A DNA stretch of 64,000 bases, taken from positions 14,687-78,686 of IMG/VR virus record IMGVR_UViG_3300034071_000380, one strand, 5' to 3'. How positions within the stretch are numbered: the stretch's first letter is position 1; each line of letters starts with the position of its first letter. This DNA comes from a virus. Below the pieces are notes generated by a model. It was not told the DNA's origin and did not search any database. It worked only from the letters and a program-made list of their open reading frames with translations. Made by a program: the position numbers and the translations under genes. Shown here piece by piece: positions 3,001 through 62,641 of the stretch.

Positions 3001-6000
3001 CGCCCATTTGCCCAATACCGCCAAACATTCTGCCGCCAACTTGACTTAATCCAAATCCAGCAGCCTGCCCTAGAAGCATTGACTTCATGTATCCAGATGC
3101 TCCAATTCTTGGCTGAACAATTCTTTGTTCGTTTTCTTCCGCAAAGTATTGAACTCCAGGAACTACCCCGCCCTTTGAGAATCCAGGAATAATTCCACCA
3201 GACATTTTTGGAACAAATATTTCTGGGCCATTCTCTCCAACCAAATATGGTCTACCACCAGTAACTGGTCCTCCGCCTGCACGAGCACCATCAACAACTG
3301 TCTCTAATTGTATCTTGCCATCTCCTGCATTAACAATTCTAAACTTACCACCAAAGATTGATTCTTGTTCTGACCTTGAATTATGTCCAGCTACCTTTTG
3401 TCCAAATGGCGCTGAGAATCTTGCATCTGGGAAAATATCTGATGCTGGAACAACATTTCTATTTCTTACAATTGCTTCTAACAGAATAGCTTTTTGGTCT
3501 CCTGGAGCAGAATGGCCAGGGGCAAACAAACTTGCTACATCTCTATTTTGGCTCCACGATGAGCGGCGCATTATAAATTCTCTTCCAATTAAAGGAGTAT
3601 AGTCTCCAGTTAATTTTGCCTGAGATATTAAATCCAATATATCTGCTGGCAACGGATTTGATTTATTATTCTTTAAAAATATTCCTCTGTATAGTCTTCC
3701 AGTATATTTTCTTGATAAAGTTTTTACTGCTTCTGTAGCGCCTGGAGTTTGCAAAATGCCATAGTTTCCAGCCATGTATTGACGCAATATGTATCTGCCA
3801 CGATCCTCTAAATTACCAATTGGGAACTGAGGAAGCACTGCTTGTCTTGCAAATCTGTCGTCACGATATAAAATTTCACGAGTCCACTCAGGCTCATTTT
3901 GCATATTTTTTGGAACCATTGTTGTTCCAATTTGTAATGGCCCATGAAGTGGATCTTGGTTTCCTAGTGTATATTGATATCCTGGTTTTCTGAACTGCAT
4001 TTGTGGCTTCCACTTTGCAGTTAATTTATCAAGCTTTGACTTAGATAAAGACTTTACTATTCTTCCAACCATGTTGGTTCCAAAGTTTTGTATGATCCCG
4101 CCCATATTTTTTCTTTGTATTCTAGCTACTTTATTTTCTTTTAGGGCAACATAATCTCGTTCGTATAATGCGGTTGGATTATATTGAGTTAAAACTCTTT
4201 CTATTTCTGGAATTACATCTTTTGTAAAAGTAAACTCTGCGCCAAGCTCTGGTCTATCTCCTATAGTTGGAAGTTGATCTACTGAGACACCACGTCTTTG
4301 TGCTTCGTTTTCAAATCTTGTTCTTATTGCTGAATCTATTGCTTCTTCAGCTTCATCCCATTGAGAAAGAGGAATTTTTGCAGCTCTTAATTGATTTCTA
4401 TATTTGTTTACTCCTGCTACCTTAACAAGGTCTCTTCTTAAAAAGTCGGATGGTCTAAGGTTATTTTGGTTTGCTGATAAATTAGTTGCCGCTGTATAAT
4501 CTACAATATAGTTGCTTACTAATACTTTTCCATCTCCTAGTTTTTTACTTACTGTAAGATGCGTACCATGTCTTGGCTCTGCATATGGAAGTGCATCTAG
4601 TCCATTTTCTACAAACCTTGAATTTAATTCGCTAACATTTTTTGACTGTAATGTTCTTGATGTTTGAGAATGAAGTGCTGGATCTTTTTTAGACCTAGTT
4701 AATTTATCTGTAAAGTTTTTAGCTACATCTAAATATTTTTGTTTTAATACAGGATCTGGAATATCACCAATTTGAGAAATAAATCCTCTAGCATCTGCCC
4801 CTCTTGCTTTTATGCCATGAACAGTTTCTACTACATCTCTATTTCTAGTTGTAGAAAGACCTTTAACAATTCTATTAGGCATCATTCTGCCAAAGAATTG
4901 CATACCGTCTATCATTCCGCCTTTATTTCTATTTTGAATTGGAACTATTACCGCTTTACCTTTATTGTATAGATGAAGTCCTTCTGGGTCACGAGCTGTT
5001 TGTTCTTTAGTTACAACAAATTCTCCTGGAGTAAGCATTGCTGGAACGGTATCTGTATTTCCCTGACCAGGTACAAATCTACCTTGTTCGGTAGTAAATA
5101 CTTGTCCACCCATATTTAATCTTCTTGGTCTAGTTGTTTCTGTTGAATATGGTGCGCCAAATGTTTTAACTCTCAGTGCTTCAGCAATTCTTGTAATAAG
5201 ACCTCTGTTTCTTGGTCTTGTAAGTTCTTTCATATTTGATTTTCCAGTTACTGGATCAAATGCTGGTTGATCTACAATTGGCAACTGTGTTAAATTAATT
5301 GTTCTTCCTTGTGCAGTAGCAACTCCTGTTGCTGCCTGCCCCATCATTGCTTCAATCTGTTGGTTTAATGCAATAACTCTTGCTCTTGCTTGTTCAACAG
5401 TTATCTTAGATGCTTGAAGATCTGCAACTATTTGTGCTGATTCTGATGCGGCAAGTGATGTTAATCTTGACATTTCTGGAAGAAGCGCTTGATATGAATC
5501 TGATAATGATGTAGTTATTAGTCCAGTTGCTGCAACTTCTCTCTTTAATAATGCTATTTCTTCTTTTGATTGCATTGCTAATGCACCAGTCATTGCATGC
5601 CACTTAGCAGCTTCTTCTGCAACAATTCCTGTTGAAACTCCACGTACCGAGCTGACTCCCTCTATCTTTGGCAGGTCGCCAGACATATACATTTGTGGGT
5701 TATTGCTTATTTTTTGATTAACTAATGGTGCTCCTGGAACAATGCCAAATATTGTTTGTGCAGCTTTTTGTTCTGGTGTCATCTGGCTTACTGGATTTGG
5801 ATGAGAAAAAGATCTAGTATCTCTATCGCTTACAAGTGGGTGGCTTGGAACAACTTCTCTTGCACCAGCAATAATTGTTTGCCCAGCAATTGTTGATATT
5901 GTTGGTTGTGATGAAATTGTAGCTGATCCTGCTTTTGTTTGTAATTGAGTTAATTGATCATTTACATAGCTAAGCGCTTCTCCAAGTGCCATAGCTGCTT

Positions 6001-7825: not shown

Positions 7826-7835
7826 TTTTTAGATG

Positions 7836-8150
7836 TTACCCCTTTTCATATCCTAATCCCGCTCCGATTCCAAATCCTGCCTGGGCTGCAAGTGGTCCTT
7901 GTAGTGAAACAACATCGTTTGCACCTGCATTTATTCCCAAGGCTCTTCTTTGTATATCTTCAAAGGTTGGACCTTCTTGTTCTTCTTCATCTTGACCTAA
8001 ATCAATTCCTTGAATAGATGCTAAGAATCTTCTTTTCTCTGATTCAGTTTTTTGCATTGACTTTAAAGTCTGAATGAGTTCTGGCATTGATAAGTTATCT
8101 TCTAGCTCGTCGTAATTCTTCCAATGACCTAAAAGAAAAACTTCTCCCAA
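7836..8150 (-). CDS. Tail assembly chaperone, post-frameshift segment
   Basis: Lies between the first chaperone and the TMP; TTG start; frame is open upstream to the slippery site at 8201-8207. Confidence 0.75.
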   Translation of the reverse strand: MGEVFLLGHWKNYDELEDNLSMPELIQTLKSMQKTESEKRRFLASIQGIDLGQDEEEQEGPTFEDIQRRALGINAGANDVVSLQGPLAAQAGFGIGAGLGYEKG

Positions 8151-8164
8151 TAAAGCGGCAAGAT

Positions 8165-8497
8165 CTAGTTCTGACCAGCCAGAACCGCTGCCGCTAGAAG
8201 GTTTGGGTCATCCATCTTAATTCCTCCGCATACTTCAAGAATGCGGTTGATTGTTGGAACATCCAATGCGTCTTCTAGTGCATCTCTATCTTTTACTAGA
8301 TCTGGCAATTGCTTTTCTAATGCTACTGCACATGCATCAATGAGAATTGTAAGCGTCTCATCTTCTGATGTAACTTCTGCTGTCTTCTGAATTGCTGCCA
8401 TGAACTTTCTAAGTTCTTTAATTGTCAAAGGCTTTAACTTTACCTTAGCCCCGTTTTGTAGTTCAATTTCTTCTACGTCGTAGATTGTAGTTGCCAA
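8165..8497 (-). CDS. Tail assembly chaperone (gpG-like)
   Basis: 110 aa acidic protein directly after the tail tube gene; LKPLTIKELRKF; GAGGA RBS. Confidence 0.78.
   Translation of the reverse strand: MATTIYDVEEIELQNGAKVKLKPLTIKELRKFMAAIQKTAEVTSEDETLTILIDACAVALEKQLPDLVKDRDALEDALDVPTINRILEVCGGIKMDDPNLLAAAVLAGQN
8201..8207 (-). other. -1 programmed ribosomal frameshift site C-CCA-AAC
   Basis: Minus strand reads GAC CCA AAC. A -1 shift continues PSSGSGSGWSELDLAALLGEVFLLGHW, in frame with 7836..8150. Confidence 0.75.
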
Positions 8498-8553
8498 TTT
8501 ATCCTCCTAGGATTGTCTTAATTATTATAACAAAACACTCTTACTAATACAAG

Positions 8554-8583
8554 CAGAAACCCCCAATTTCTTGGGGGTATCTG
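8554..8583 (-). terminator. Intrinsic terminator-like hairpin after tail tube gene
   Basis: ACCCCCAA-tttc-TTGGGGGT inverted repeat. Confidence 0.6.
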
Positions 8584-8603
8584 AATTAAATAATTAAATT
8601 TAA

Positions 8604-9335
8604 TTATGCATAAACACGGTCAATAATCTTACCGTATTCTTGGCCAGCATATGTCGCATCTCCTGATGGGAGAAGACGGAATGTTACTGGGAATGTTGTT
8701 GGTGTGTTACGAGCTAGAGAGAACTGTGACTGCTGTACTGAAAGAACACGACGTGCATAATATACACGCTCATTCTTTCCGTAGCTAGTATTGTTGTAAT
8801 CTGGAGCTGGTCCAACTGCAATTAGCTGGCGCTCAACTGGTGCAGATTGCAAAGCTCCTGCTGCCAAACCTAGAACCTGTGGTGTTGTATCTGTTGGCTC
8901 TGCTGTTGTTAGAGTATCATCTCCGTCAAAAGCTGCGGCATTTACTCCACCTTCAGTAATTCCAGCTGTTCCTCCTGGCTGACCAAACACAACGAGAATA
9001 TTCTCAAGTGTTCCTTCTGCCATTTCTGTTGCTAGCATAACTTCCATTGACTCCTTGAACAGCTTAGCTGAATCTAGAAGCTGGTCTACTGTTACGTTAC
9101 CATATGTTGGGTTATAAGTAATCTGAAGACCGTTATTTGTGTATCCAACGTTGCGCCACTTTGTAGTTGCCGCATTAAGTGTAGTTGTATATGATTGGGA
9201 TGAGTTAAACTCTACCTTAGCACTACCCTTTGTTGGATCAAGATTTGAATCGCCATCGAATGCTGCTTGGTTGATGAACAACGGTGAAGCACCTACGATA
9301 ATGTTCTTGGCTGAATTGTATGTATCTCTTGCCAT
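8604..9335 (-). CDS. Major tail tube protein
   Basis: NIIVGASPLF, VGYTNNGLQITYNP, VTVDQL, FPVTFRLLP motifs typical of actinophage tail tubes; synteny. Confidence 0.82.
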   Translation of the reverse strand: MARDTYNSAKNIIVGASPLFINQAAFDGDSNLDPTKGSAKVEFNSSQSYTTTLNAATTKWRNVGYTNNGLQITYNPTYGNVTVDQLLDSAKLFKESMEVMLATEMAEGTLENILVVFGQPGGTAGITEGGVNAAAFDGDDTLTTAEPTDTTPQVLGLAAGALQSAPVERQLIAVGPAPDYNNTSYGKNERVYYARRVLSVQQSQFSLARNTPTTFPVTFRLLPSGDATYAGQEYGKIIDRVYA

Positions 9336-9441
9336 TTATTTCTTACCTCCTGTTTTTTCAAAAAATCTAATAAATCTGTCAAGCTGGCTAGGCTTCTTTC
9401 CTCTTGGTATAATAATAAGCCTTTTTGGGTAAAAAGGCAAA

Positions 9442-9951
9442 CTATATAAACCGCCCGTTTGAATCAGACAAACGGGAATATTTAATTTCTAGGACTATGT
9501 CTGTAGACAAAAATCCTTGTAGCTCTTCTGAGGGAGCCGCTGGAGAGATGTCAGCAATAAATATGCTATAGAATTGAAACTTATCTGACAGATTTGTCCA
9601 GTTATTTACATCTCTTGCAGACTCATCTACCCTTCTAAATAAGTCAGTCATAAAATTTCTAATCTCATTGATGTCATTAATATCTGTGGAATATATGGTA
9701 AACAATACTTGCTCACAGCATATAGCCCATAGGTCTTCATATGACATTCCTATCTTGTCATAGACTATGTGCTTCTTTCCGCTCAAAAAATGATTTAATT
9801 CTGGAGATTGTTGGACGGGAATAATAGGTACTATTTCATCCCCTATACTATCGCTATAATAATCAGATGCAGTAAATATATCAGCATCCTTTAATTTCTG
9901 CCACAAGTACTTACGCAATTCAAGCATTGCATCTACTCTATAATTAACCAT
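9442..9951 (-). CDS. Tail terminator/completion protein (putative)
   Basis: Size and position immediately upstream of the tail tube gene. Confidence 0.6.
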   Translation of the reverse strand: MVNYRVDAMLELRKYLWQKLKDADIFTASDYYSDSIGDEIVPIIPVQQSPELNHFLSGKKHIVYDKIGMSYEDLWAICCEQVLFTIYSTDINDINEIRNFMTDLFRRVDESARDVNNWTNLSDKFQFYSIFIADISPAAPSEELQGFLSTDIVLEIKYSRLSDSNGRFI

Positions 9952-10733
9952 TAGCCCATACCTCCAAATGCTGAACTTAGTGCAAAGTCTGCTTGTGATC
10001 TAACAGAGTTTGGAGAAAATGAATATCTAACTCTTCTAATATCTGATGGTAATCCAAGTGCTTTGCTTATTGAACTATTAAATAATCTTTGAAACCCCGA
10101 TCTTTTAATAGATTGATTAACCAAGTCTCCTGTAAAGAAATATTTATATGCTACTTTAAAAGAGTCTTTTACTCTAACGCCTCCAGGCTTGCTAACGGTC
10201 ACTGAGGCCCCTTTAGGCATAAAGACGGTATCACCACCAACTTCGAATACAATGCGCTCAGATGACCTTGGAGCAATTACTACGGGTACTCCAGATTCCA
10301 TCACGGAAGCTTTATTTGCAAATACATGTGTATGCTTGCCTTTTTTAGTTGGGACCATTGATTTAGATAATTTAAAATTATATGTTAATTGAAATGACAA
10401 TCCATCCTGTGGTAACTTATTTAATTCAAAAAGTCTAGCTTCTTTGTCTCCAGCCTTTTTCCATTCATAAACATGGTGTAATGCTAGGGGTGTCGTTCTT
10501 GCTTTTGCATCAATATATTCACCAAAATCTTTTTCTATTTGATTAAATATAACTGTGCTAAATTTATTTTGAAAATTCTTGTTTGATGTCAATTTAGACA
10601 TTACGGTAGCTTTATAATAAACCGCTGCCGATATTTGAGCAACCAAGCTATCCTTTAAATGTTTATTTCTTGTTCCCATCATAAGGGGTTCAAGTCCGCT
10701 TGCTGCCGCTACTAATGCTGTACTAGAGTCCAA
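9951..10733 (-). CDS. Neck/tail completion protein (putative)
   Basis: Basic 260-aa protein in the head-tail module. Confidence 0.5.
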   Translation of the reverse strand: MDSSTALVAAASGLEPLMMGTRNKHLKDSLVAQISAAVYYKATVMSKLTSNKNFQNKFSTVIFNQIEKDFGEYIDAKARTTPLALHHVYEWKKAGDKEARLFELNKLPQDGLSFQLTYNFKLSKSMVPTKKGKHTHVFANKASVMESGVPVVIAPRSSERIVFEVGGDTVFMPKGASVTVSKPGGVRVKDSFKVAYKYFFTGDLVNQSIKRSGFQRLFNSSISKALGLPSDIRRVRYSFSPNSVRSQADFALSSAFGGMG

Positions 10734-48326: not shown

Positions 48327-48737
48327 TGTATTACTTCCCTATTATTCTAGTTGACTAGGATTTTAGTCTTATATAATGTTAATATAATATTATTTTTAAT
48401 GTTTCATCTGGAAATTAGATTTTTAGCAAACCCCCCCTACCCCCCTTTTTTTAACTTAAAGGAAAGTAGAGAAAGTTCACAAAGATCATATGCAATACAT
48501 CTGGCATATTGAGTTCTTAGTGTAACCCCCGAAACCTTTCCAATTGTAACATGGGACATTTTTGTAGGTCAAGCTTTTTTAGATTTTACAAAATGTTAAT
48601 AGGATTTTATCTTGTATGATACATACATTAGAAATGTCCGTTTTGTCTGTATAGTGCTCCCATAAATGGCTATTTGTGACCCTTATCACATACCTTTTTT
48701 TAGAAATGTCCTTAATGTCCGAATTTGGACTTGCAAT

Positions 48738-48760
48738 TTGTCAGTGCCTTAGTATAGTCT
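48738..48760 (+). promoter_or_regulatory. PafBC/RecA-NDp-type promoter
   Basis: TTGTCAGTG-ccttagta-TAGTCT. Confidence 0.75.
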
Positions 48761-48807
48761 TAATACATAAGGTTAAGAAAGGTTCTTAACAGAAAGGAGT
48801 TAGATAA

Positions 48808-48990
48808 ATGACTAACTCAATTTTTGCGAAAGTTGCTAAATCAAGCGACTTTCCTGCAGGTTTAATGAATACCTGCCAATGCGGACAGGTTGTTTTAGCC
48901 CCCGCTACAATTCACGACATTTGCCTACCAAATGGCACTTGCCTACATACCGCTTGCGGTAGAGACATTTGGGGAAACCCAATCGCCTAA
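48808..48990 (+). CDS. Small Cys/His-rich early protein
   Basis: AAGGAG RBS; follows a promoter. Confidence 0.6.
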   Translation: MTNSIFAKVAKSSDFPAGLMNTCQCGQVVLAPATIHDICLPNGTCLHTACGRDIWGNPIA

Positions 48991-49007
48991 CGGCGTGTCT
49001 CCCCAAT

Positions 49008-49030
49008 TTGTCACCGCTATCCGCTACAAT
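49008..49030 (+). promoter_or_regulatory. PafBC/RecA-NDp-type promoter
   Basis: TTGTCACCG-ctatccgc-TACAAT. Confidence 0.72.
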
Positions 49031-49064
49031 TCCTACTATAACTACTAACGAAAGGTCATAACAA

Positions 49065-49208
49065 ATGACACTAGATGAATACAGAGAATACCAGCAAGCC
49101 CAGTACGCTAAACAGCGTGAGGCTAATAAGGCTAAGATAAATGCTATGTTCTCTACTACTAACCGCCCTCTAACTAATGACTACCTACTAGCGAAAGAAG
49201 AAAACTAA
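49065..49208 (+). CDS. Small early protein (47 aa)
   Basis: GAAAGG RBS; MTLDEYREY... Confidence 0.6.
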   Translation: MTLDEYREYQQAQYAKQREANKAKINAMFSTTNRPLTNDYLLAKEEN

Positions 49209-49375
49209 TGACTATCACTTACTCAATTTGGCAAGGCTCTAAACTAATCTCTGTGAACAATGTTGCACATGAGGTCAAGGCTATTGACCACCTAATCAAT
49301 TCACTAAACGATAGCGAACTAGGCAAGGGTAAGAAATTTACCGCTAATGTAATGGACATCAAGGTAGGAGAATAA
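49208..49375 (+). CDS. Small early protein (55 aa)
   Basis: TAATG-coupled; MTITYSIWQG... Confidence 0.6.
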   Translation: MTITYSIWQGSKLISVNNVAHEVKAIDHLINSLNDSELGKGKKFTANVMDIKVGE

Positions 49376-49378
49376 TAA

Positions 49379-49564
49379 ATGACTAAATGGGATACTATAC
49401 AAGCAGATGTTGCAGACCAATACGCACACCTAGATGAGGAGGAGGCACTTATGGAGTGGCTAGGAGAAGAAGAAGATGTTTTTGGTTTTGCTAAGGCTAT
49501 TGAGATTGACCACTTAACAGATGAACAATTAGATGAGGTCTTTAACATGTTTGGAGATAAGTAA
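49379..49564 (+). CDS. Small acidic early protein
   Basis: AGGAG RBS. Confidence 0.65.
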   Translation: MTKWDTIQADVADQYAHLDEEEALMEWLGEEEDVFGFAKAIEIDHLTDEQLDEVFNMFGDK

Positions 49565-49902
49565 TGAGCATAAGCGGATTAGTATTTAGAATAAATGACT
49601 ATGGCATGGAGTTAGATAGTTTCTTAGGGGCTATCTATCTACCATGGCACACTATTGCCACCGCCGTTTTTATTACTGTTGCTTATAAGATCTACAAGGT
49701 AAGGAGAGATAAATGGTAGTAATACTATGCGCCATGGTAGGTTTTGGTGTGGCGTATCTCATAGCTAACTAACGGCGTGTCTCCTTGACAATTCAGGGAG
49801 ACCGCCCCTATCTTTTGTGGGCGTTATCCACAGGGGTGATTAAGAGGGTGTGGATAAACACCCTGGATTTTGTGAGCAACATCACATCAAATAGATTAGG
49901 TT

Positions 49903-49925
49903 TTGTCGGTGCGTTGTGATAGTCT
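49903..49925 (+). promoter_or_regulatory. PafBC/RecA-NDp-type promoter
   Basis: TTGTCGGTG-cgttgtga-TAGTCT. Confidence 0.78.
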
Positions 49926-49956
49926 TGCCTTAATAAATCAACGAAAGGAAAACTTC

Positions 49957-50103
49957 ATGTGCGCTTCATGCTACGCTATTGAAAACGGAATAACTTGTTA
50001 TTCTATTAAACCATCTGACCTATGCGATACTCATTACTTTGAGTGGCAACAAGAAAAAATGTATTGGGAATTAGACCGCTCAACGGAAGGACTTTACATA
50101 TGA
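49957..50103 (+). CDS. Small Cys-rich early protein
   Basis: GAAAGG RBS; MCASC..CDTH. Confidence 0.6.
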   Translation: MCASCYAIENGITCYSIKPSDLCDTHYFEWQQEKMYWELDRSTEGLYI

Positions 50104-50264
50104 GCACTTTTGTATCTGTAAACTCTGTATGTGGTGCAGTAACCACCACAATCGATATGTATGATTTAGAATTAAATCCGCATGGTGTTATCTGTTGCGA
50201 TAATTGTCAAAGCATTGTGTTATGCCGTGAGGCGTGGAATTTTTTATACAAGGGGGTAAAGTAA
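50100..50264 (+). CDS. Small Cys-rich early protein
   Basis: ATGA-coupled; CCDNC. Confidence 0.6.
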   Translation: MSTFVSVNSVCGAVTTTIDMYDLELNPHGVICCDNCQSIVLCREAWNFLYKGVK

Positions 50265-50606
50265 TGAATACAGATCTGTTAAAAGATGTCGCATCTATTG
50301 CAAAAGAAAAGCATGGCGATAATTGGCTTGCTTATCTTTGGGGCGCATCTCAAGTTTTGCTTAACGAAAAAGATTTGCAAATAATTTTAGAAACTTTGCA
50401 AGATAATTAAATAAAGGCGGCGTGTCGACTTGACAAAGTCGGCAGCTGCCCCCAAAGATGAGGGGGCTGTGGATAACTTACGTGTAAATGTGGAAAACCC
50501 CTGAAAAATTGTGGATAACTTGTGTACGACACGCCCGAGATCTTGTGAGATTTATCACACGGCTTGAGCGTCTCAATATTTGGAATTACTGGCTAGTAAT
50601 TAGTTT

Positions 50607-50629
50607 ATGTCAGTGGCTTTTGGTACAAT
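50607..50629 (+). promoter_or_regulatory. PafBC/RecA-NDp-type promoter
   Basis: ATGTCAGTG-gcttttgg-TACAAT. Confidence 0.78.
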
Positions 50630-50659
50630 ACTCTTATCAACAAACGAAAGGCGGACACC

Positions 50660-50866
50660 ATGTCAGCAAATGTCTATACAATCGAAAGCCTACTTGTAGG
50701 AAAAACCTATCGCTCAAAGTCTTTAACTGGAGAAATCATTGACGCAGAAAAGTCTGATGATGTCTGGTATGCAGATTGCGATACTTATAAAGTACAGGTT
50801 CGTCCTCACTATTCAGCACCGCTAAACCTCAAAGATACTTATCGTTATTTGGCAGTAAAGATTTAA
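50660..50866 (+). CDS. Small beta-barrel-like early protein
   Basis: GAAAGG RBS after a promoter. Confidence 0.68.
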   Translation: MSANVYTIESLLVGKTYRSKSLTGEIIDAEKSDDVWYADCDTYKVQVRPHYSAPLNLKDTYRYLAVKI

Positions 50867-50936
50867 CGGGTATCGAAACAGGGGCAGTTTAGGGGAAGTC
50901 CTCGCCCAATGTCGTAAGTAAGAATCCTCACACAAT

Positions 50937-50959
50937 TTGTCAGTGCTAACTGATACAAT
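50937..50959 (+). promoter_or_regulatory. PafBC/RecA-NDp-type promoter
   Basis: TTGTCAGTG-ctaactga-TACAAT. Confidence 0.8.
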
Positions 50960-50996
50960 AACTTAAACAAACAAACAAACGAAAGGAAAACTATAA

Positions 50997-51149
50997 ATGG
51001 GAAACTTCTTAGATGTATTAGATGAGGGAACTATCTCCGTCATTGTGTGTGATGATTGCATGGGTTTTGGTGCAATTTTTTGGGGAGATGAAAACTCCTA
51101 TGATGTCGAGCCATGCGATTGCGTAACTAACGAAATTGGAGATTACTAA
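50997..51149 (+). CDS. Small zinc-finger early protein (50 aa)
   Basis: CDDCMGFG..CDC; GAAAGG RBS. Confidence 0.6.
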   Translation: MGNFLDVLDEGTISVIVCDDCMGFGAIFWGDENSYDVEPCDCVTNEIGDY

Positions 51150-51150
51150 G

Positions 51151-51354
51151 ATGTATAAGATTACTTTATCCTATGACGGAAATTCTGTTCGCTGGAGTGG
51201 CGACTATGATGATGCATTGGAAGCATTTACCGCATTTGCTAAATTTACTGATGTTGGATTTGCTAACGAATACTCAACGATTAATCTATCAATGCCGACA
51301 GGCAAAATGTACACAAAAGTAATTGACCGCATGGGAAAGGTAACAATTAAATGA
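51151..51354 (+). CDS. Hypothetical early protein
   Basis: GGAG RBS; operonic. Confidence 0.62.
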   Translation: MYKITLSYDGNSVRWSGDYDDALEAFTAFAKFTDVGFANEYSTINLSMPTGKMYTKVIDRMGKVTIK

Positions 51355-51536
51355 TGACTCGTAAAGACTATGTAGCAACCGCAGAAATTCTAAAGTATGG
51401 AAGCGACAAAATGCATCCTGCTTTATTCTCAAAAATTGTTGGAGATTTTGCGGAAATGTTCGCAAAAGATAATCCACGATTTGATGTAACACGATTTCAC
51501 GAAGCAAGCAATTACAAAGTAAAGGTGGTTTACTAA
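51351..51536 (+). CDS. Conserved small phage protein (MTRKDY...DNPRFD..RF)
   Basis: Motif recurrent in small phage early proteins. Confidence 0.68.
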   Translation: MMTRKDYVATAEILKYGSDKMHPALFSKIVGDFAEMFAKDNPRFDVTRFHEASNYKVKVVY

Positions 51537-51537
51537 A

Positions 51538-51840
51538 ATGGGAAATACATTTGCAGCGGATCTAGTAAGCATGGATTTATCTTTATCTGATTCTATTAGA
51601 ATTCATTTAACTAGTAATCACTATCCACCCGTCCCGTCTTCCATGGTACAACCTTGCATTGATGCGATTGATGCGATTAATGATGAGCAAGGTGAAACAC
51701 TAATTGAATTACCCGATGGCGTATTTTGGCGAGGTGAAACTCATGCGCCTGCTTATGCAATTGCAGAAGCACACCATTTACACAATTGGTTAAATCATTC
51801 TTGGGATTGCGATTGTTATGATTGCATCGCTGAAGAGTAA
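51538..51840 (+). CDS. Hypothetical early protein
   Basis: HLTSNHYPPVP..C; His/Cys-rich C-terminus. Confidence 0.68.
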   Translation: MGNTFAADLVSMDLSLSDSIRIHLTSNHYPPVPSSMVQPCIDAIDAINDEQGETLIELPDGVFWRGETHAPAYAIAEAHHLHNWLNHSWDCDCYDCIAEE

Positions 51841-52161
51841 AGTCCAACGCATTCAGGAATTGCGTCGCAGTAATGCGGCGCAACCTGTTCGCAATAAAAA
51901 AAAGTACAAACGTAAACAAAAATACAAAAAGGATTTAAATAATGATTGATCTGATTGGTATAATAATTACTGCAATACTTATTCTAGGAATGCTATCCCC
52001 AATATATGTTGTTTATAAAATTTGGAATAGTTGACAAAACTTTAAAGCTGCCCCCGAAGTCGTGGGGGCATAACTTGTCTTACGTCAAGTTATAAAATAT
52101 CCCTGAAATTGTGAGATTAATCACAAAATAAATTAAATAAACATTGGGCGTGTTGCACAAT

Positions 52162-52184
52162 TTGTCAGTGGACCATGCTACAAT
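52162..52184 (+). promoter_or_regulatory. PafBC/RecA-NDp-type promoter
   Basis: TTGTCAGTG-gaccatgc-TACAAT. Confidence 0.8.
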
Positions 52185-52217
52185 TCCACTATCAACCAAA
52201 CGAAAGGTAATAAATAA

Positions 52218-52424
52218 ATGGTAGCAATCGAACACACACTTAAATTCGTCACAGAAGTAGACGAAACAAATCCAACAGGTGCCCGTCTTTTACAATTAGA
52301 TAAGCAATCACAAATTCTAATGCTAGAGTCTGCACTTCGTGAATTTGTAATTCCAGCGGTCCTTCCAGTATTGGAAAACATCAACAAAGGCGGTTCATGG
52401 GCTATCGTAAAGGTGGCAGAATAA
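52218..52424 (+). CDS. Hypothetical early protein
   Basis: GAAAGG RBS after a promoter. Confidence 0.65.
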   Translation: MVAIEHTLKFVTEVDETNPTGARLLQLDKQSQILMLESALREFVIPAVLPVLENINKGGSWAIVKVAE

Positions 52425-52594
52425 ATGGACAATCTTTATTCTATCTTATCCGAAAGACACCCAGATGGAGACTTTAATGAAATGGATTTATGGGAGGCTA
52501 TCGCAGACTCAGAAGGCTTGGAGCTGAACGAAATTATGGACGGCGACCTAACAGAATACTTGTGATACTTATCACACCATAAAGGTCTTGATAA

Positions 52595-52617
52595 ATGTCA
52601 GACCCTAATGCTACAAT
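52595..52617 (+). promoter_or_regulatory. PafBC/RecA-NDp-type promoter
   Basis: ATGTCAGAC-cctaatgc-TACAAT. Confidence 0.72.
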
Positions 52618-52643
52618 AACACCCTAAACAGAAAGGAAGCAAA

Positions 52644-52820
52644 ATGACAGTAAATGGATACACTTACAAGGTTGGCGATTTATTCACCACTCTTAAGTCA
52701 AAGAAAACTGGAGTAATCAAGGAGATTATTCCTAACGCATCTGGCTCGGTGCGTGTCTTGCTAGAAATGCCAACAAAGGAAACTCGTTGGACAACAGTTA
52801 GCAACGAAGCCCTAGTATAA
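52644..52820 (+). CDS. Small SH3/KOW-like early protein (58 aa)
   Basis: YKVGDLF..KTGVIKEI..VRVLL..RW. Confidence 0.62.
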   Translation: MTVNGYTYKVGDLFTTLKSKKTGVIKEIIPNASGSVRVLLEMPTKETRWTTVSNEALV

Positions 52821-52843
52821 GGAAATGCGGAAGGGTCGCAGAA

Positions 52844-52866
52844 ATGTCAGACCCTTCCGCTACAAT
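52844..52866 (+). promoter_or_regulatory. PafBC/RecA-NDp-type promoter inside an 11-bp inverted repeat
   Basis: ATGTCAGAC-ccttccgc-TACAAT. Confidence 0.72.
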
Positions 52867-52902
52867 ACAACTAAACCAACCAACCAACGAAAGAGGAAAC
52901 AA

Positions 52903-53325
52903 ATGGCTAGAGGAAAAGCAATCTCAGTTAAAATCGCAACACCAAAAGTAATCAAGGCACTAGAGGCAAAGTTAGTAGAACTTAATGCCAACTATGCTAA
53001 TCAAGAAACAAACGAAGCAAAGTATAAGAAGGCTATGGAAAAGTGGCAGAAGGAAATTACTGCTTATGCCGTTTCTAACATCAAGAAAGCAGAAAACTTC
53101 CGTACTAACTATCGTTCTTGGAATAACACTCTCAACATTGACTTTGATTTGACAGTTACACAATCAGAACTGCCAGCAGAGCCTGAGCGTGACTTTGAGC
53201 AGATGGGTCGTCACACATACCTAGAGCAAAAGCAAGAAATCGAAAACGCAATTCGTATTCTCAAGATGACAGATGAGGAAGTAGTAAATACTTCCACATA
53301 CAATGCGGTTGCTCGTTATCTATAA
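52903..53325 (+). CDS. Coiled-coil hypothetical early protein
   Basis: GAGGA RBS; start MARGK. Confidence 0.72.
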   Translation: MARGKAISVKIATPKVIKALEAKLVELNANYANQETNEAKYKKAMEKWQKEITAYAVSNIKKAENFRTNYRSWNNTLNIDFDLTVTQSELPAEPERDFEQMGRHTYLEQKQEIENAIRILKMTDEEVVNTSTYNAVARYL

Positions 53326-53340
53326 TTACCAATAGGTAAA

Positions 53341-53370
53341 TGTCCTGAGCATGACAACTAAAACTGCTCA
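53341..53370 (+). ncRNA. Putative H-type pseudoknot element, copy 1
   Basis: TGTC-CTGAGCAT-GACA-actaaaac-TGCTCA. Confidence 0.5.
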
Positions 53371-53405
53371 CACCTTCGGGTGTCCCTACTAACAAAGGAA
53401 ATAAA

Positions 53406-53633
53406 ATGCGTAATCGTTTTAGAATAGAAATCTATGACGCAAACAAAGCAAATGATTTAACAATCTATTCTGAACAGGGTGTAGATAAAGAATACTTAAC
53501 TGAATTAGTATTCTCTAACATTCGCCGCTTTAATGGCAAAGTAAATGCATACGTTGTTGATACGTTAAAGAAAAAGAAAACAACTGCAATGTTTCTTGAT
53601 GAGGAAATTGCAAAGAAGTATCAAACAGTATAA
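53406..53633 (+). CDS. Hypothetical early protein
   Basis: AAGGA RBS. Confidence 0.65.
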   Translation: MRNRFRIEIYDANKANDLTIYSEQGVDKEYLTELVFSNIRRFNGKVNAYVVDTLKKKKTTAMFLDEEIAKKYQTV

Positions 53634-53784
53634 AGCTTGGGGCGGGATCTTGTCCCGCCCCACCTTCCCTGCCCTCATAGTTGCGGGGTTATCCACAGGC
53701 TTACGGAAGTTATCCACAACACCCTGAAAAATTGTGAGATTCATCACAACAAATTTGTCGACAAATGACTAACTAATCTAGACA

Positions 53785-53807
53785 ATGTCAGTGCCACATG
53801 TTATACT
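53785..53807 (+). promoter_or_regulatory. PafBC/RecA-NDp-type promoter
   Basis: ATGTCAGTG-ccacatgt-TATACT. Confidence 0.78.
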
Positions 53808-53839
53808 CAATCTAACAAACCAACCGAAAGGAAATAAAC

Positions 53840-54844
53840 ATGGCTCATAATCTAGAAATGGAAAATGGCGAAGTTGCATTTGCGCTTCGTGGAAAACCTG
53901 CATGGCATAATCTTGCCAATCGCATCTTCACACAAGATGAAGAAGTAACTACACAAACAATGCTTGAAGAAGCAAAGTTGTCTAATTGGAATGTTCGTCT
54001 ATCTCCAATCACTGAGCACATTCCAGAATCTTGGAATGATGTTTCTACTGCATCTCTTGTCATTCGTGATAACCCATTTAATGGCGGTACTGATGTGCTT
54101 GCTACTGTTGGTAAGCGTTACAAGCCTGTGCAGAATGAGGAATTGTTTGCATTCGCTGATGCAATTCACGATGCAAATGCTGATTGCCGTTGGGAATCTG
54201 CTGGTTCTTTGCGTAGCGGTAAAGTTGTATTTGGTACTGTGGACATTCCCCGCACAATGGTGCTTGATCCACAAGGCGCAAATGATGAAACAAAGTTGTA
54301 TCTAATTGTGTGGACATCTCACGACGGGTCTGTTGCTGTTCAGGCTGCTGTTACTCCTGTTCGTGTTGTATGCCAAAACACTCTTAACCTTGCAATGAAG
54401 AATGCAAAGCAATCTTTCAAGATTCGTCATACACAATCTGTTGAAGGTCGCATTCAGGTTGCCCGTGAAACTCTTGGTCTTGCTCTTGGATACTTTGATG
54501 AATTTGAGAAGGAAGCACAAGCAATGTTCAATCAATCAATTACTGATGCTGAATTTTCAAAGTTAATTCAGACAATCTACCCAAAGCCTGAAAAGGATTC
54601 TAAGGGTGCATTGAAGAAGTGGGAAAACAAAGTTGTGTTGCTTGATGATTTGTATCATAACTCACCAACCAATGCTAATGTTAAAGGCACAAAGTGGGGT
54701 GCATTTAATGCGCTTACTGAACGCCTAGATTACTATCGCACATCTCGTGGCAATTCAGAATCACTAATGGCTGGTGCATCTGGATTTGACCCTGTTCTAA
54801 CTGCTGAGAAAAACAAAATCAAGAAATTGGTTTCTGCTTTCTAA
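53840..54844 (+). CDS. DUF932 family (TIGR03299-like) phage/plasmid protein
   Basis: MAH..PAWH.L, YKPVQN, ESAGSL..G, SHDGS, PVRVVCQNTL, RHT, GTKWGAFNALTE. Confidence 0.88.
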   Translation: MAHNLEMENGEVAFALRGKPAWHNLANRIFTQDEEVTTQTMLEEAKLSNWNVRLSPITEHIPESWNDVSTASLVIRDNPFNGGTDVLATVGKRYKPVQNEELFAFADAIHDANADCRWESAGSLRSGKVVFGTVDIPRTMVLDPQGANDETKLYLIVWTSHDGSVAVQAAVTPVRVVCQNTLNLAMKNAKQSFKIRHTQSVEGRIQVARETLGLALGYFDEFEKEAQAMFNQSITDAEFSKLIQTIYPKPEKDSKGALKKWENKVVLLDDLYHNSPTNANVKGTKWGAFNALTERLDYYRTSRGNSESLMAGASGFDPVLTAEKNKIKKLVSAF

Positions 54845-54851
54845 ATAAATA

Positions 54852-54879
54852 AAATCCTGAGCATGATTTAAAACTGCTC
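54852..54879 (+). ncRNA. Putative H-type pseudoknot element, copy 2
   Basis: AAATC-CTGAGCAT-GATTT-aaaac-TGCTC. Confidence 0.5.
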
Positions 54880-54885
54880 CACATT

Positions 54886-54959
54886 GTGCCGTTAGCTCAG
54901 TTGGTTAGAGCCCCGAACTCATAATTCGGTCGTCGTAGGTTCAAGTCCTACACGGCACA
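54886..54959 (+). tRNA. tRNA with CAU anticodon (Ile2-like, or Met)
   Basis: Acceptor GTGCCGT/ACGGCAC, D arm GCTC/GAGC, anticodon arm CCGAA-CTCATAA-TTCGG, T arm GTAGG-TTCAAGT-CCTAC; C4/C5 as in TilS substrates; no encoded CCA. Confidence 0.92.
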
Positions 54960-55050
54960 CTTGACAATTGCAGGTGAATGCCCCCATATTTGAAGGCAGC
55001 AGGATCTTGTTACGACCAATATAAAAAAAGCCCTGAAAATCTGTTGACAT

Positions 55051-55073
55051 TTGTCAGTGGCTACCCCTATAAT
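55051..55073 (+). promoter_or_regulatory. PafBC/RecA-NDp-type promoter (also TTGACA at 55044)
   Basis: TTGTCAGTG-gctacccc-TATAAT. Confidence 0.8.
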
Positions 55074-55101
55074 AATGCCATCAACCAACGAAAGGAACAA
55101 T

Positions 55102-55755
55102 ATGCCAAACTGGGTATATAACGGATTAACTGTAGAAGGTAATCCTGATTCTGTAAAGAAAATGATGGCTCAACTAAATAAGCCATTTACGCAACTACAT
55201 GATTCATGGGATGTAAGCAAGAATACATTCATGAAGAAGAATACTCTATATGCAGAGCCTATCTTTGCATTTCATAATATCTATAATTATATAGATGCAG
55301 GAATTACTGAAGAGGAATATCTTTCTCAGCCTGACCATTCCCTCCCAATTCAAGAAGCAATGAAGTGTCTTACTAATGATTGGTATAACTTTAATATCCG
55401 TGAGTGGGGAACCAAGTGGGATGTAGCCGTATCTGTAGGTGACAAGTATCCTGATACTACAGTTGAAGATACTGCTAATGGTGATAACCATGTCGTTCAT
55501 TATAACTTTAACACCGCTTGGTCTCGCCCAATGGGTGCATTAACTAAACTATCTGCACAATACCCTGACCTACTATTTACTTTATCATATGAGGAAGAGA
55601 CTGGCTGGGGCGGAGAAATGGAAATCCTTCGTGGCGTAGTTATATCAGAATCAGAATATGACAACATCTGCCGTGAATGTGATGAGACTGATTGTGTACT
55701 CTTTGATGGAGAAAGAGGTGTAGAGGTATGCACCAAATGTGGGTATGAGTCATGA
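55102..55755 (+). CDS. YubB/Api92-like ferredoxin-fold protein with C-terminal zinc ribbon
   Basis: MPNW..N, DWYNFNIREWGTKWD, FNTAWS.P, YEEE; CREC..CTKC. Confidence 0.75.
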   Translation: MPNWVYNGLTVEGNPDSVKKMMAQLNKPFTQLHDSWDVSKNTFMKKNTLYAEPIFAFHNIYNYIDAGITEEEYLSQPDHSLPIQEAMKCLTNDWYNFNIREWGTKWDVAVSVGDKYPDTTVEDTANGDNHVVHYNFNTAWSRPMGALTKLSAQYPDLLFTLSYEEETGWGGEMEILRGVVISESEYDNICRECDETDCVLFDGERGVEVCTKCGYES

Positions 55756-56369
55756 CAGATTTAATCTCATCTAAATATACATTTGTCTGCGATCCAAATG
55801 AATGTGATTCTTTAATCGAACTAACATCATCAGATGGCTTTGGGTTCCCATCTGGTGTGACCGAGCTAACATGTCCTTGTGGCCGTAAGACCACATTATT
55901 GTCAGTGGAGCATGCTACACTACCAACAACTAACCAAACGAAAGAGGAAAAAATGGAAACAACAACAGATAACCACTACATGACACGAGAGTTTCTTGAG
56001 TCACAGTTAGTACAAAACAAGGCACGCATTCAGCAACTTGAAGAGCAGATTCAACGTGTCACACAACGTGACTACGCAACTGCAGGAACATTAAACAAGT
56101 TACGTGATGACATGAAGGTATTTACATTAGAAGGTCTTGATGACGATTCTATTACAGAATACCAAGCAGAAGAGATTGCAAGCATCTGTGGCTTTGAACT
56201 AACAAATGAGTTTGAGTTGACTGTAACAGTTCAGTATTCAGTTACAGTTAATGCTCGTGACGAGGAGTCTGCTATCAATGCAATTCATGAGACAGACTTT
56301 GACACAGTATCATATGATGAACCAATTACATATATGTCATCATCTATTGATTCAGTAGAGGTTGACTAA
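55752..56369 (+). CDS. Zn-finger N-part in frame with a downstream coiled-coil protein (internal start 55953)
   Basis: CDPNEC..CPC; internal promoter at 55899 and GAGGA RBS before ATG 55953. Confidence 0.65.
   Translation: MTDLISSKYTFVCDPNECDSLIELTSSDGFGFPSGVTELTCPCGRKTTLLSVEHATLPTTNQTKEEKMETTTDNHYMTREFLESQLVQNKARIQQLEEQIQRVTQRDYATAGTLNKLRDDMKVFTLEGLDDDSITEYQAEEIASICGFELTNEFELTVTVQYSVTVNARDEESAINAIHETDFDTVSYDEPITYMSSSIDSVEVD
55899..55921 (+). promoter_or_regulatory. PafBC/RecA-NDp-type promoter within coding sequence
   Basis: TTGTCAGTG-gagcatgc-TACACT. Confidence 0.75.
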
Positions 56370-56581
56370 TGTACTTTGAACTTACCGCTCCGAACCAGGT
56401 GGCCTTTGCAAGGGCCATCTGGGATGCGGAGATAATCGGTTTAGATCCAGAGGCAATGGAATCGTTGACATTCAACATTGGAACTGGTAGTATTGAGAAA
56501 GTAACACGCCTTCGTGAAAAGCATAACCTAAAACTAATTCATGAAAGCGATTCAGAACCAACGGGATATAGGAGAGATTAA
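56369..56581 (+). CDS. Hypothetical early protein
   Basis: TAATG-coupled. Confidence 0.62.
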   Translation: MYFELTAPNQVAFARAIWDAEIIGLDPEAMESLTFNIGTGSIEKVTRLREKHNLKLIHESDSEPTGYRRD

Positions 56582-56728
56582 AATGGGCGACACATACCAA
56601 GATGGCTTCACAGATGGAGCACGCTGGGCTCGTGAGGAAATAACAGAGAGACTGCGTGAGATTGATGTTTATGACATTGATACTTGGTTGCTAGATAAAT
56701 TAGCAGACATGATTGAAGGCGGAAAACT

Positions 56729-56935
56729 GTGATGGAGGATCTATCTAGATGGATTGCATGTGACCAATGCGGTACCGCCCAAGCTATGTATCTAGTTAAA
56801 CTAGTAGACGGTGAATTGTTCTTTTGCGGTCACCACTATAATGCAAGCAAAAGAGGCCTTGACAAGGTCGCATATGAAGTAGTAGAATTAAATAAGACCG
56901 AAGAAGTACCTACATTAGAAGAGGCGGAACTGTAA
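56729..56935 (+). CDS. Small zinc-binding protein (CDQC..CGHH)
   Basis: Motif recurrent in actinobacterial and actinophage small proteins. Confidence 0.68.
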   Translation: MMEDLSRWIACDQCGTAQAMYLVKLVDGELFFCGHHYNASKRGLDKVAYEVVELNKTEEVPTLEEAEL

Positions 56936-57336
56936 TGGGAGATAGAGCAAACTTTGGATTTAGACAGTCAAACGGTGAAACGATTGTTCTATACGGGCAC
57001 TGGGCAGGATACAACATGCTAGCAAAGTTAGCGGATGCTGTAGATAAGGCCCGTCCACGTTGGACAGATGAATCATATGCAACACGCATCTGCATTTCAC
57101 AATTGGTTGGAGATGATTGGAATTCAGAAACAGGCTGGGGCCTACAGGTAAATTCAATCAGCGACAATGAACATAAGATTCCATTAATTGATTGGGCAAC
57201 ACAAACGTTTAGTCTGCATGAAGAAGCGCCATGGTCCGAGTCAACAGAATACAAGGTCCGTGGAATGTTAGACACACCAATCTTTGATATGTCTTTAGAT
57301 AGTTTTGTAAAGAAATATTCTGCAGCATTAGTTTAA
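56935..57336 (+). CDS. Conserved phage hypothetical protein (MGDRA..LYGHWAG)
   Basis: TAATG-coupled, 133 aa. Confidence 0.72.
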   Translation: MGDRANFGFRQSNGETIVLYGHWAGYNMLAKLADAVDKARPRWTDESYATRICISQLVGDDWNSETGWGLQVNSISDNEHKIPLIDWATQTFSLHEEAPWSESTEYKVRGMLDTPIFDMSLDSFVKKYSAALV

Positions 57337-57431
57337 ATAAGTAAAGGTGCCTCTATAGTCATCCAATGCGTTATGGCCAGGGGTTAAATAAAGCAGGTTT
57401 TTACTTTCGTTGGTACCTAGCAGCCTTATGT

Positions 57432-57472
57432 AAAACCCCAGTTTGGAATAAGCCCCTACAGCTGGGGTTTTT
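57432..57472 (+). terminator. Intrinsic terminator
   Basis: AAAACCCCAG...CTGGGGTTTTT. Confidence 0.6.
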
Positions 57473-57592
57473 GCATGTGCCCTCAAAAGAAGGAGGGTAT
57501 CATAACTCTCTTACGAGATCAATATAATTTTCCCTGAAATTTTGTGAGATGCGCCACAATGTGGCGGGTATCACATAGGAAATCTATTCCAT

Positions 57593-57615
57593 TTGTCAGT
57601 CCCTTAATATATAAT
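57593..57615 (+). promoter_or_regulatory. PafBC/RecA-NDp-type promoter
   Basis: TTGTCAGTC-ccttaata-TATAAT. Confidence 0.75.
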
Positions 57616-57639
57616 AATCACATAACGAAAGGGATAAAA

Positions 57640-57852
57640 ATGGAAGCATTTACAGATACAGTAGGAGAGCATATACTTGGAGCAATCCAAGTAGATATTG
57701 AGCAAGCATTATTTGAAGATTGGAATAATGCTAACTTAGAAGAAGGGGAGGCATTTGCAGAATGGAGATTTATGCAATTTGCTCCTGATAACTTAAAACA
57801 ATCATACAATGAATACTATGGTTATATAGAGGGAGATGAATTTCTTCTATGA
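57640..57852 (+). CDS. Acidic hypothetical early protein
   Basis: GAAAGGG RBS. Confidence 0.65.
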   Translation: MEAFTDTVGEHILGAIQVDIEQALFEDWNNANLEEGEAFAEWRFMQFAPDNLKQSYNEYYGYIEGDEFLL

Positions 57853-57988
57853 TTACCAGCCAAGAACTAATTGATTATATCTATGATGACAACTTAATCC
57901 ATTTTGACGACAGAGATACATCAGATGATTGTGATTGTCACATTCATATAACACTTAATACTATGATTAAATATATGGAGGCAATTGA

Positions 57989-58174
57989 ATGCTAGGTTAT
58001 GAAATGGCAGATATAGATGAGATGATTAACTCAGTTCATGATGCTAAGTTATTCTATCTTAGGACCCCGTCCGATTTGATCGACAAGGAACCATTAGTTA
58101 AAAGCTTGGAAAAGACAGTTAGTTTTCTTCAAGGTTTATGGGCAGAAGGATATTTTGATGGCTACCAAGACTAG
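57989..58174 (+). CDS. Hypothetical early protein
   Basis: GGAGG RBS. Confidence 0.65.
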   Translation: MLGYEMADIDEMINSVHDAKLFYLRTPSDLIDKEPLVKSLEKTVSFLQGLWAEGYFDGYQD

Positions 58175-58346
58175 TAGATTCCTAGAATATATAAAGCTTC
58201 ATCTAATTAGTCTTATCCAGGACTTAGACAACTTACATTCAACTGATGATAACTTTAAATTTGTTGAAGGACAAATTGAGGCAACCAAGCATTTATTGTC
58301 AGTGGCTACTGATATAATGAACTCTTCTAACGAAAGGTATGAATAA
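58155..58346 (+). CDS. Hypothetical early protein
   Basis: Its 3' end encodes the promoter at 58296. Confidence 0.58.
   Translation: MMATKTSRFLEYIKLHLISLIQDLDNLHSTDDNFKFVEGQIEATKHLLSVATDIMNSSNERYE
58296..58318 (+). promoter_or_regulatory. PafBC/RecA-NDp-type promoter within coding sequence
   Basis: TTGTCAGTG-gctactga-TATAAT. Confidence 0.78.
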
Positions 58347-58639
58347 TGAGAGATACAAGTATTACTGAACTCCCGCCCCATTTGCAACGCATGGTCAATT
58401 ACGACATTAATGGATTAGACATAATGCATGGCGAACTAAAGAACCTAATGCTTATTTGGGAAAAAGAATTAGAAAATGCCCAAGAGATTGAGGATGAATC
58501 AGGAGACGCTATGGACTCTATGGAGCGAAAGTATTGCGAAGGCTTCCTTGACTCCTTGGTTGCTCTATATAATCTAACATATCAACTATCATTTCAAATC
58601 GGTATCAGAAAAGAAAACAGAAAGGACGGGCACCTGTAA
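58346..58639 (+). CDS. Hypothetical early protein
   Basis: GAAAGG RBS. Confidence 0.65.
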   Translation: MRDTSITELPPHLQRMVNYDINGLDIMHGELKNLMLIWEKELENAQEIEDESGDAMDSMERKYCEGFLDSLVALYNLTYQLSFQIGIRKENRKDGHL

Positions 58640-61952: not shown

Positions 61953-62342
61953 TTAGAATGGAACTTCCGCAAACTTCTTGTATGATGGGAACTGATCTCC
62001 TGGAAGATTTTGACTCTTAGATAAGCTAAATGTAGTTACTGCAATTGATTCAGCATTGATCTCATAAGAGGTACGCTTTGTACCTTCCTTATCCGTCCAG
62101 TTTTCTTCATACACCTTACCCACAATGATTACTTCTTGCCCCTTCTTTAGAACGTCCTTAGACTGCTCTGCAAGGCGCTTCCAAGCCTTTACTGTCCACC
62201 ATGAGGTATTCTTGTCTTCCCACTCACCTGTAGTGTCATTCTTTACACGATCATTTGTTGCAACTCGTAGACGCAAGCCATTTGAGCCAATAGCCTCTGG
62301 ATCTTGCCCAATTCTACCCACAATTGTTATTACTGGATTCAT
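61953..62342 (-). CDS. ssb: Single-stranded DNA-binding protein
   Basis: ITIVGRIGQDPE, WWTVKAW..LAE, LKKGQEVIIVG, WTDKEG; C-terminal EVPF. Confidence 0.9.
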   Translation of the reverse strand: MNPVITIVGRIGQDPEAIGSNGLRLRVATNDRVKNDTTGEWEDKNTSWWTVKAWKRLAEQSKDVLKKGQEVIIVGKVYEENWTDKEGTKRTSYEINAESIAVTTFSLSKSQNLPGDQFPSYKKFAEVPF

Positions 62343-62641
62343 TTGTTTTCCTTTATCGCTAAGATGTTCTTGCTATTTACTAGCAGGAACTTATTTCCCT
62401 CATCATCTTCTATGTTGGTACCAGCATGTTCAGGGAAATAAACTACGTCTCCCTCGCTTATTTCCAAAATAGGAATGACCTCGCCTTTATAGTTAGCCTC
62501 ACCTCCGCCAACAGCAACTACTTCTCCCATAGCTGGCCCATTGTCTGAAAATGTTGCAGAGATGACAAGACCAGTTTTAGTGGTCTTTTCTCCTGTATTA
62601 ATTTTCTTTACTAATATAATATTTCCTAGTGGTTTAATCAT
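62339..62641 (-). CDS. groS: Co-chaperonin GroES
   Basis: IKPLGNIILVK, TKTGLVI, GEVVAVGGG, GDVVYF, ILA. Confidence 0.88.
   Translation of the reverse strand: MIKPLGNIILVKKINTGEKTTKTGLVISATFSDNGPAMGEVVAVGGGEANYKGEVIPILEISEGDVVYFPEHAGTNIEDDEGNKFLLVNSKNILAIKENK

Follow-up and report, generated by a model that had tools for sequence, protein, structure and literature searches.

We describe here an array of promoter-like elements in a 64,000-nucleotide stretch of viral DNA (the window), which comprises bases 14687-78686 of IMG/VR record IMGVR_UViG_3300034071_000380. The record is 78,686 b long with a CheckV completeness of 66%, and represents a phage of 38% GC content from lake-water metagenomes. 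The element in question is wTGTCAG-N10-TAnnnT, of which 13 co-oriented copies lie on the + strand in a block at 48739-58318. Each copy heads a transcription unit of one to five small genes, probably expressed early. The block holds about 40 small genes in all; most of these, and many other genes of the phage, have no known family.

Promoter 1 (48739-48760, TGTCAGTGCC..TAGTCT) is followed by a first gene whose ATG is at 48808, and promoter 2 (49009-49030, TGTCACCG..TACAAT; ATG at 49065) alone among the copies has C at position 6. Promoter 3 (49904-49925, TGTCGGTG..TGATAGTCT; ATG at 49957) has two DnaA boxes and a TGTGA-N6-TCACA palindrome upstream, as promoter 4 (50608-50629, TGTCAGTGGC..TGGTACAAT; gene 50660-50866) also has DnaA boxes and a palindrome. 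Promoters 5 (50938-50959, TGTCAGTGCT..TGATACAAT), 6 (52163-52184, TGTCAGTGGA..TGCTACAAT), 7 (52596-52617, TGTCAGACCC..TGCTACAAT) and 8 (52845-52866, TGTCAGACCC..TACAAT) precede genes with their ATGs at 50997, 52218, 52644 and 52903 respectively. A DUF932 gene (53840-54844) is headed by promoter 9 (53786-53807, TGTCAGTGCC..TGTTATACT), and a gene for an Api92-like DUF1281_C protein (ATG at 55102) by promoter 10 (55052-55073, TGTCAGTGGC..TATAAT), which has in addition a TTGACA at 18-nt spacing. The last three are promoter 11 (55900-55921, TGTCAGTGGA..TGCTACACT; ATG at ~55953), promoter 12 (57594-57615, TGTCAGTCCC..TATAAT; ATG at ~57640) and promoter 13 (58297-58318, TGTCAGTGGC..TGATATAAT; gene 58346-58639).

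A preliminary description of this stretch had reported 13 co-oriented copies at a fixed spacing, each followed by an A/C-rich leader, a ribosome site and a gene, and mostly without a canonical -35 element (its coordinates begin one base before ours, at the w). All of this held up. A scan with the looser pattern TGTCR-N11-TAnnnT gave 17 matches in the window, compared with 5.47 ± 2.3 in 100 shuffles (maximum 11). Of these, 14 are on the + strand within the block, and 13 are the promoter sites. The gap between TGTCRG and TAnnnT is 10 nt at all 13 sites, making a 22-nt motif, and 12 of them read TGTCRG, promoter 2 being the exception. At every site the motif is followed by an A/C-rich leader of 25-36 nt, ending in an (AC)GAAAGG or GAAAGA ribosome site, and then by an ATG. 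Several open reading frames (ORFs) to which the mechanical list gives a start farther upstream truly begin at these ATGs, and the promoters are therefore intergenic and define 13 transcription units. Pairs of -35 and -10 elements of the sigma-70 type are not enriched in the region (51 vs 46.7 ± 6.1), and a sigma-70-like -35 is present at only 3-4 of the 13 sites. The possibility that TTGTCA is itself a -35 element was ruled out, since 11 nt, and not 16-18, separate it from the -10. The 14th match (50661-50682) begins one base into the start codon that opens the gene at 50660-50866, and a similar sequence is kept in one relative (G001); it is probably coding sequence and not a promoter. Beyond the array, the whole record has only four scattered matches, all on the - strand.

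Conservation was analyzed in related lake phages. The DUF932 protein of the block matched 248 IMG/VR contigs, and 80 of these were examined for the motif. All 80 carry the array, with 8-21 gene-strand copies each, and together they contain 1192 matches on the gene strand vs 60 on the opposite strand. Five relatives are complete genomes (112-120 kb, with capsid proteins 79-82% identical to that of the window phage). Each has 14-17 co-oriented copies in one block of 10-11 kb and 0-4 copies elsewhere, so that a check for confinement to this region, proposed in the preliminary description, came out in its favor both in the genome and in its relatives. The 22-mer of promoter 13 is identical in four of the five. 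A family logo built from 828 distinct instances reads wwwTGTCAG-(t/a)SSc-...-TGnTAtAAT. Position 6 is G in 95% of instances even though the search pattern left it unconstrained, and the logo contains no -35 consensus, the information at the -35 position being at most 0.3 bits. When the 80 loci were anchored on TAYAAT only, 479 of the 1478 sites on the gene strand had GTC at offset -15, compared with 55 for the second most frequent offset, and on the opposite strand no GTC offset peak was seen.

Substitution rates were obtained from 256 distinct orthologous copies, which were found via BLAST and not via the motif pattern. Changes affect 0-1.6% of cells in TGTCAG and 0-0.4% at T17, A18 and T22, compared with 13-44% in the spacer and flanks. 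The element under selection is thus the six-mer plus the -10; the 'TG' after the six-mer is less constrained than the six-mer itself. It is concluded on these sequence grounds that all 13 are genuine promoters of the phage, with a hybrid '-26/-10' form. In three of the complete relatives, the 22-mer TGTCGGAAATTTTAAATAAAAT is kept at one site outside the block (G002:72882, G004:37479, G005:11399), perhaps as an isolated promoter of this kind.

The motif closely resembles the promoters read by PafBC, an HTH-WYL-WCX heterodimer (HTH, helix-turn-helix) that is activated by single-stranded DNA (ssDNA). The PafBC consensus derived from chromatin immunoprecipitation is tGTCgg(N10)tA(N3)T, and PafBC promoters lack a -35 (PMC8635444). 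In the cryo-electron microscopy structure, the PafB HTH contacts -23 to -28 and reads two G:C pairs of the GTC, with SigA holding the -10 (PMC8635444). This reading of promoters by an adapted SigA holoenzyme is called 'sigma adaptation', and PafBC serves as an ssDNA alarm of the cell (PMC11804915). Assuming a start about 7 nt past the -10, the phage TGTCAG would occupy -28 to -23. The match to the PafBC regulon suggested earlier therefore applies to the position of PafB contact as well as to the consensus. In sequence, register and architecture the phage element matches a PafBC promoter, and PafBC would be predicted to bind the phage promoters and to be needed for their activity. Contigs from three runs labeled as RNA (two of them probably DNA) and from one DNA run were also compared with the block. 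Two RNA-contig ends fall near predicted starts (~55080 and 53818) and others fall inside or upstream of promoters; these are ends of assembled contigs, for which DNA carry-over is possible.

The logo also contains an extended -10 element, with T14 at 62% and G15 at 75%, and G15 is changed in only 8.6% of orthologous cells. This is what would be expected if the promoters were used by SigA alone, TGnTAnnnT being sufficient, in which case TGTCAG would be the site of a phage shut-off repressor, or of some other host factor, that happens to resemble the PafBC box. A -35 is often missing from actinobacterial SigA promoters, and the block contains further sites resembling those of host factors, namely the DnaA boxes and the TGTGA-N6-TCACA palindromes. 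However, TGTCAG is asymmetric, has one fixed distance to the -10 and never occurs away from a -10, as would suit a part of the initiation complex better than an operator. It is moreover improbable that chance would put a word of 6-9 nt into precisely the PafBC register in a phage of actinobacteria. We consider it unlikely that SigA alone accounts for the array.

The cultured relatives of the phage suggest what kind of host it may have. Its capsid protein is 55-59% identical to those of Streptomyces BE/BK phages (Stanwilliamsviridae, ~130 kb) and 40-42% identical to those of Rhodococcus phages; no other match exceeds 31%. The DUF932 protein shares 51-52% identity with products of genes 2-5 in the BE-phage terminal repeat, including that of Jay2Jay, and its matches are mostly to actinophages. 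All five complete relatives encode WhiB. On this protein evidence the phage belongs to an actinophage lineage. A GC content of 38% at first argues against an actinobacterial host, but the proteins point to actinophages. GC content says little about the host here, because BE phages are far lower in GC than their hosts. The block itself gave no match in a megablast search against 50,697 phage records, and in a distant blastn search only the DUF932 gene and tRNA-like pieces matched.

Profile searches of the five complete relatives gave no match above cut-off for WYL, HTH_PafC, HTH_11 or sigma70_r2. PafBC, if involved, is therefore that of the host, and the earlier suggestion that a phage mimic of PafBC might take its place was not borne out by the WYL, HTH_PafC and sigma70_r2 searches. 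The reader of TGTCAG could instead be an activator of unrecognized fold, similar to MotA/AsiA, that is encoded by the phage or delivered with the virion, and the block would then be a middle rather than a first class of genes. Such a protein could be among the many gene products, including most of those of the block, that belong to no known family. In T4, MotA recognizes the box TGCTTtA, and MotA and AsiA act by sigma appropriation. The T4 middle promoters have the same architecture as the phage array, the -35 giving way to an activator box near -30 that keeps a fixed short distance to the -10 (PMC8635444). The T4 box and its readers are, however, phage-encoded, whereas the box of the window phage differs from it by inspection and equals the site of a host activator. 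Unlike in T4, no phage activator was found in the relatives of the window phage by the WYL, HTH_PafC and sigma70_r2 searches (no search for MotA/AsiA homologues was made). A box identical to the host's own would be needless for a private phage factor. Finally, every unit of the block has the box, and no distinct earlier promoter class is visible inside it. A phage activator thus seems to us quite improbable.

Candidate hosts were surveyed for the same motif. In 41 genomes of the Microbacteriaceae, the family of a lake 'Aquiluna' metagenome-assembled genome (MAG), TGTCRGTG-N8-TAnnnT has ~271 matches vs 19 for a reversed control. Class-wide there are ~1070 matches vs ~46 for the reversed control, and 109 of 121 genomes have at least one. 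Only this pooled tally includes seven unpublished genomes (G052, G060, G069, G075, G077, G081, G088); when these are left out, 102 of 114 genomes have a match. In one freshwater-type member of the Microbacteriaceae (G032, 1.4 Mb, ~48% GC), recA is preceded, at a distance of 31 nt, by the box TGTCAGTGGC..., and other matches precede genes for a YqaJ-like exonuclease, gyrB and a DnaQ-like exonuclease. In five Microbacteriaceae genomes (1.2-1.9 Mb), two WYL ORFs of 312-361 aa lie side by side. G032, the one genome of the five that was tested, has HTH_PafC above cut-off in one of its two ORFs, making them a pafBC pair. The search for pafB and pafC in candidate hosts that the preliminary description called for thus found such a pair in G032, and the sequences support the view that pafBC is present in lineages that may include the host, and that the phage box is also in use at recA there.

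An attempt to name the host from ribonucleotide reductase (RNR) matches did not succeed. RNR genes 86-94% identical to that of the phage are found on contigs in MAGs labeled Saccharibacteria, Bacteroidia, Brevundimonas and Bacteroidetes, and a 79% match in a cyanobacterial MAG. These are most likely mis-binned phage contigs, so no host was assigned. The 'Aquiluna' MAG, which is among the RNR matches, also holds a capsid gene that is 41% identical.

We think it fairly probable that the phage promoters are fired by host RNA polymerase (RNAP) with SigA, adapted by PafBC, which would tie the block to the ssDNA alarm of the cell. In this mechanism a canonical SigA -10 (TAnnnT, mostly TAYAAT and usually after TGn) would be combined with TGTCAG at -28 to -23 replacing the -35. 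Host PafBC, once activated by ssDNA, would adapt the RNAP-SigA holoenzyme to read TGTCAG. The 10-kb block of small genes, probably host-takeover genes, would thereby be coupled to the ssDNA and DNA-damage alarm of the host. The activating ssDNA could come from resected or nicked incoming DNA, from phage replication, or from UV damage in surface water. The broader proposition is that an abundant and global lineage of ~115-kb lake actinophages has swapped its early promoters for the PafBC-type -26/-10 form, with the host alarm, raised by the incoming genome or by sunlight damage, launching the phage program. For this we would put the chances at about even.

Several observations weigh against PafBC control. 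About 75% of the sites have the extended -10 TGn, which is not evident in the listed host sites, and which lets promoters lacking a -35 work with SigA alone, so that basal firing independent of PafBC is possible. Half of the phage sites read TGTCAG-ACC/TCC and not the host-like TGTCAG-TGG. The array is missing from six cultured phages, of which Jay2Jay, Faust, Wakanda, Trina and Francesca are relatives and the Streptomyces phage phiC31 is unrelated; each has 0-6 scattered matches to the motif, which is chance level. The homologous block of Jay2Jay uses TTGtat-17-TGTAGACT promoters. The trait is thus lineage-specific, and could need a lineage-specific phage factor of unrecognized fold. The record of the window phage, at 66% completeness, also lacks whiB, which in the complete relatives lies ~17 kb beyond the block, a place that would be past the end of this fragment. 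The original proposal, that the phage is driven through the host damage or ssDNA sensor, consequently stands in part: the motif, the actinophage lineage, and the pafBC genes and recA box of the candidate hosts all speak for it, and the extended -10 weakens the claim that firing depends on PafBC.

PafBC could also be bound by the array for another purpose. With 13-17 boxes per genome, multiplied by replication, the sites could act mainly as a sponge that titrates PafBC-RNAP off host repair and defense genes. This would be compatible with PafBC-driven transcription of the block. The high copy number and the clustering of the sites are in keeping with it, and PafBC is reported to regulate phage resistance in mycobacteria (a 2025 report, according to the passage citing it in PMC12848934). 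Each box is, however, accompanied at a set distance by its -10, leader, ribosome site and gene, which is the layout of a working promoter and not of bare binding sites. We therefore see very little likelihood that the array serves mainly as a decoy.

Further features of the block concern other host regulators. Six exact DnaA boxes (TTATCCACA) occur at 49824, 49849(-), 50468(-), 50510(-), 53689 and 53710. They are all of those in the window, for which a rough estimate of the number expected for an exact 9-mer is ~0.5. They form three clusters within the block, each followed closely by a palindrome and then by one of promoters 3, 4 and 9. The palindromes, TGTGA-N6-TCACA, correspond to a CRP/GlxR-type consensus; there are six exact copies in the window (48675, 49871, 50544, 52110, 52561 and 53733) vs 0.05 expected, and an imperfect copy at 57543. 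They often follow CCCTGAAA, and 17-48 nt downstream of each one there is a TGTCAG promoter. The phage may in this way draw on three host regulators, with DnaA boxes and CRP-type palindromes placed beside PafBC-type promoters.

A repeat containing GGCGTGTC..TTGACA.. and a GC-rich inverted repeat is found after gene ends at 48988-49005, 49770-49815, 50410-50455 and 54960-54991, and could form a hairpin, act as a terminator or be a cis element of some other kind. The only tRNA of the window, a tRNA-Met (CAT), lies mid-block at 54886-54960 on the + strand. Between promoter 1 and a group of lysozyme-like genes there is an AT-rich stretch (48351-48700) with internal direct repeats at 48369-48407 and 48586-48624, near a strand switch and the GC-skew minimum. 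At the other end, genes for SSB and Cpn10 (GroES) on the - strand (61953-62641) run toward the point where the promoter block ends.

WYL regulators, PafBC among them, are known to alert the host to DNA damage and, in other bacteria, to attack by phages. A full-text literature search found no paper linking PafBC, RecA-NDp promoters or sigma adaptation to phage early promoters, so that the novelty claimed in the preliminary description is upheld for the literature searched. The nearest work concerns WYL regulators of defense systems and the reported effect of PafBC on mycobacteriophage resistance mentioned above. If PafBC control is correct, this would be the first virus known to exploit sigma adaptation, which would extend from the mycobacterial repair regulon to virus-host conflict. 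A host defense signal would become the start signal of the phage, with the alarm's own promoter heading its first genes. The success of infection in sunlit lakes would be predicted to track host DNA damage, and the array would be a source of compact, natural, damage-inducible promoters for actinobacteria.

The phage sites can be compared first with the RecA-NDp promoters (recA P1-type) that PafBC reads in Mycobacterium and other Actinobacteria. The two have in common TGTCRG, a 10-nt gap and no -35 consensus, and with the predicted start the phage TGTCRG would likewise lie at -28 to -23. In contrast to the host promoters, the phage sites number 13-17 per genome, clustered in one 10-kb block, and head small genes without assigned function rather than repair genes. 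At position 5 they favor A, most of them carry an extended -10 TGn in addition, and their dependence on PafBC is a prediction. The second comparison is with the clusters of strong early promoters that large virulent phages have in their terminal regions (the host-takeover module of SPO1 and the pre-early region of T5) and with the terminal-repeat block of BE phages, which likewise have many close co-oriented promoters, each over one or a few tiny genes. These three use canonical -35/-10 promoters, unlike the window phage. In Jay2Jay the layout (1-10500, - strand) consists of CCGGACA, TTGTAT or TTGCAT, a 17-nt spacer, TGTAGACT, and leaders with CGAAAGGG. With this layout the terminal-repeat block of Jay2Jay, a relative, relies on promoters of another kind. 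The DUF932 gene is common to the Jay2Jay terminal repeat and the block of the window phage. By analogy with the BE terminal repeat, T5 and SPO1, the block described here would be expressed early, and would correspond to a terminal repeat or first-expressed region.

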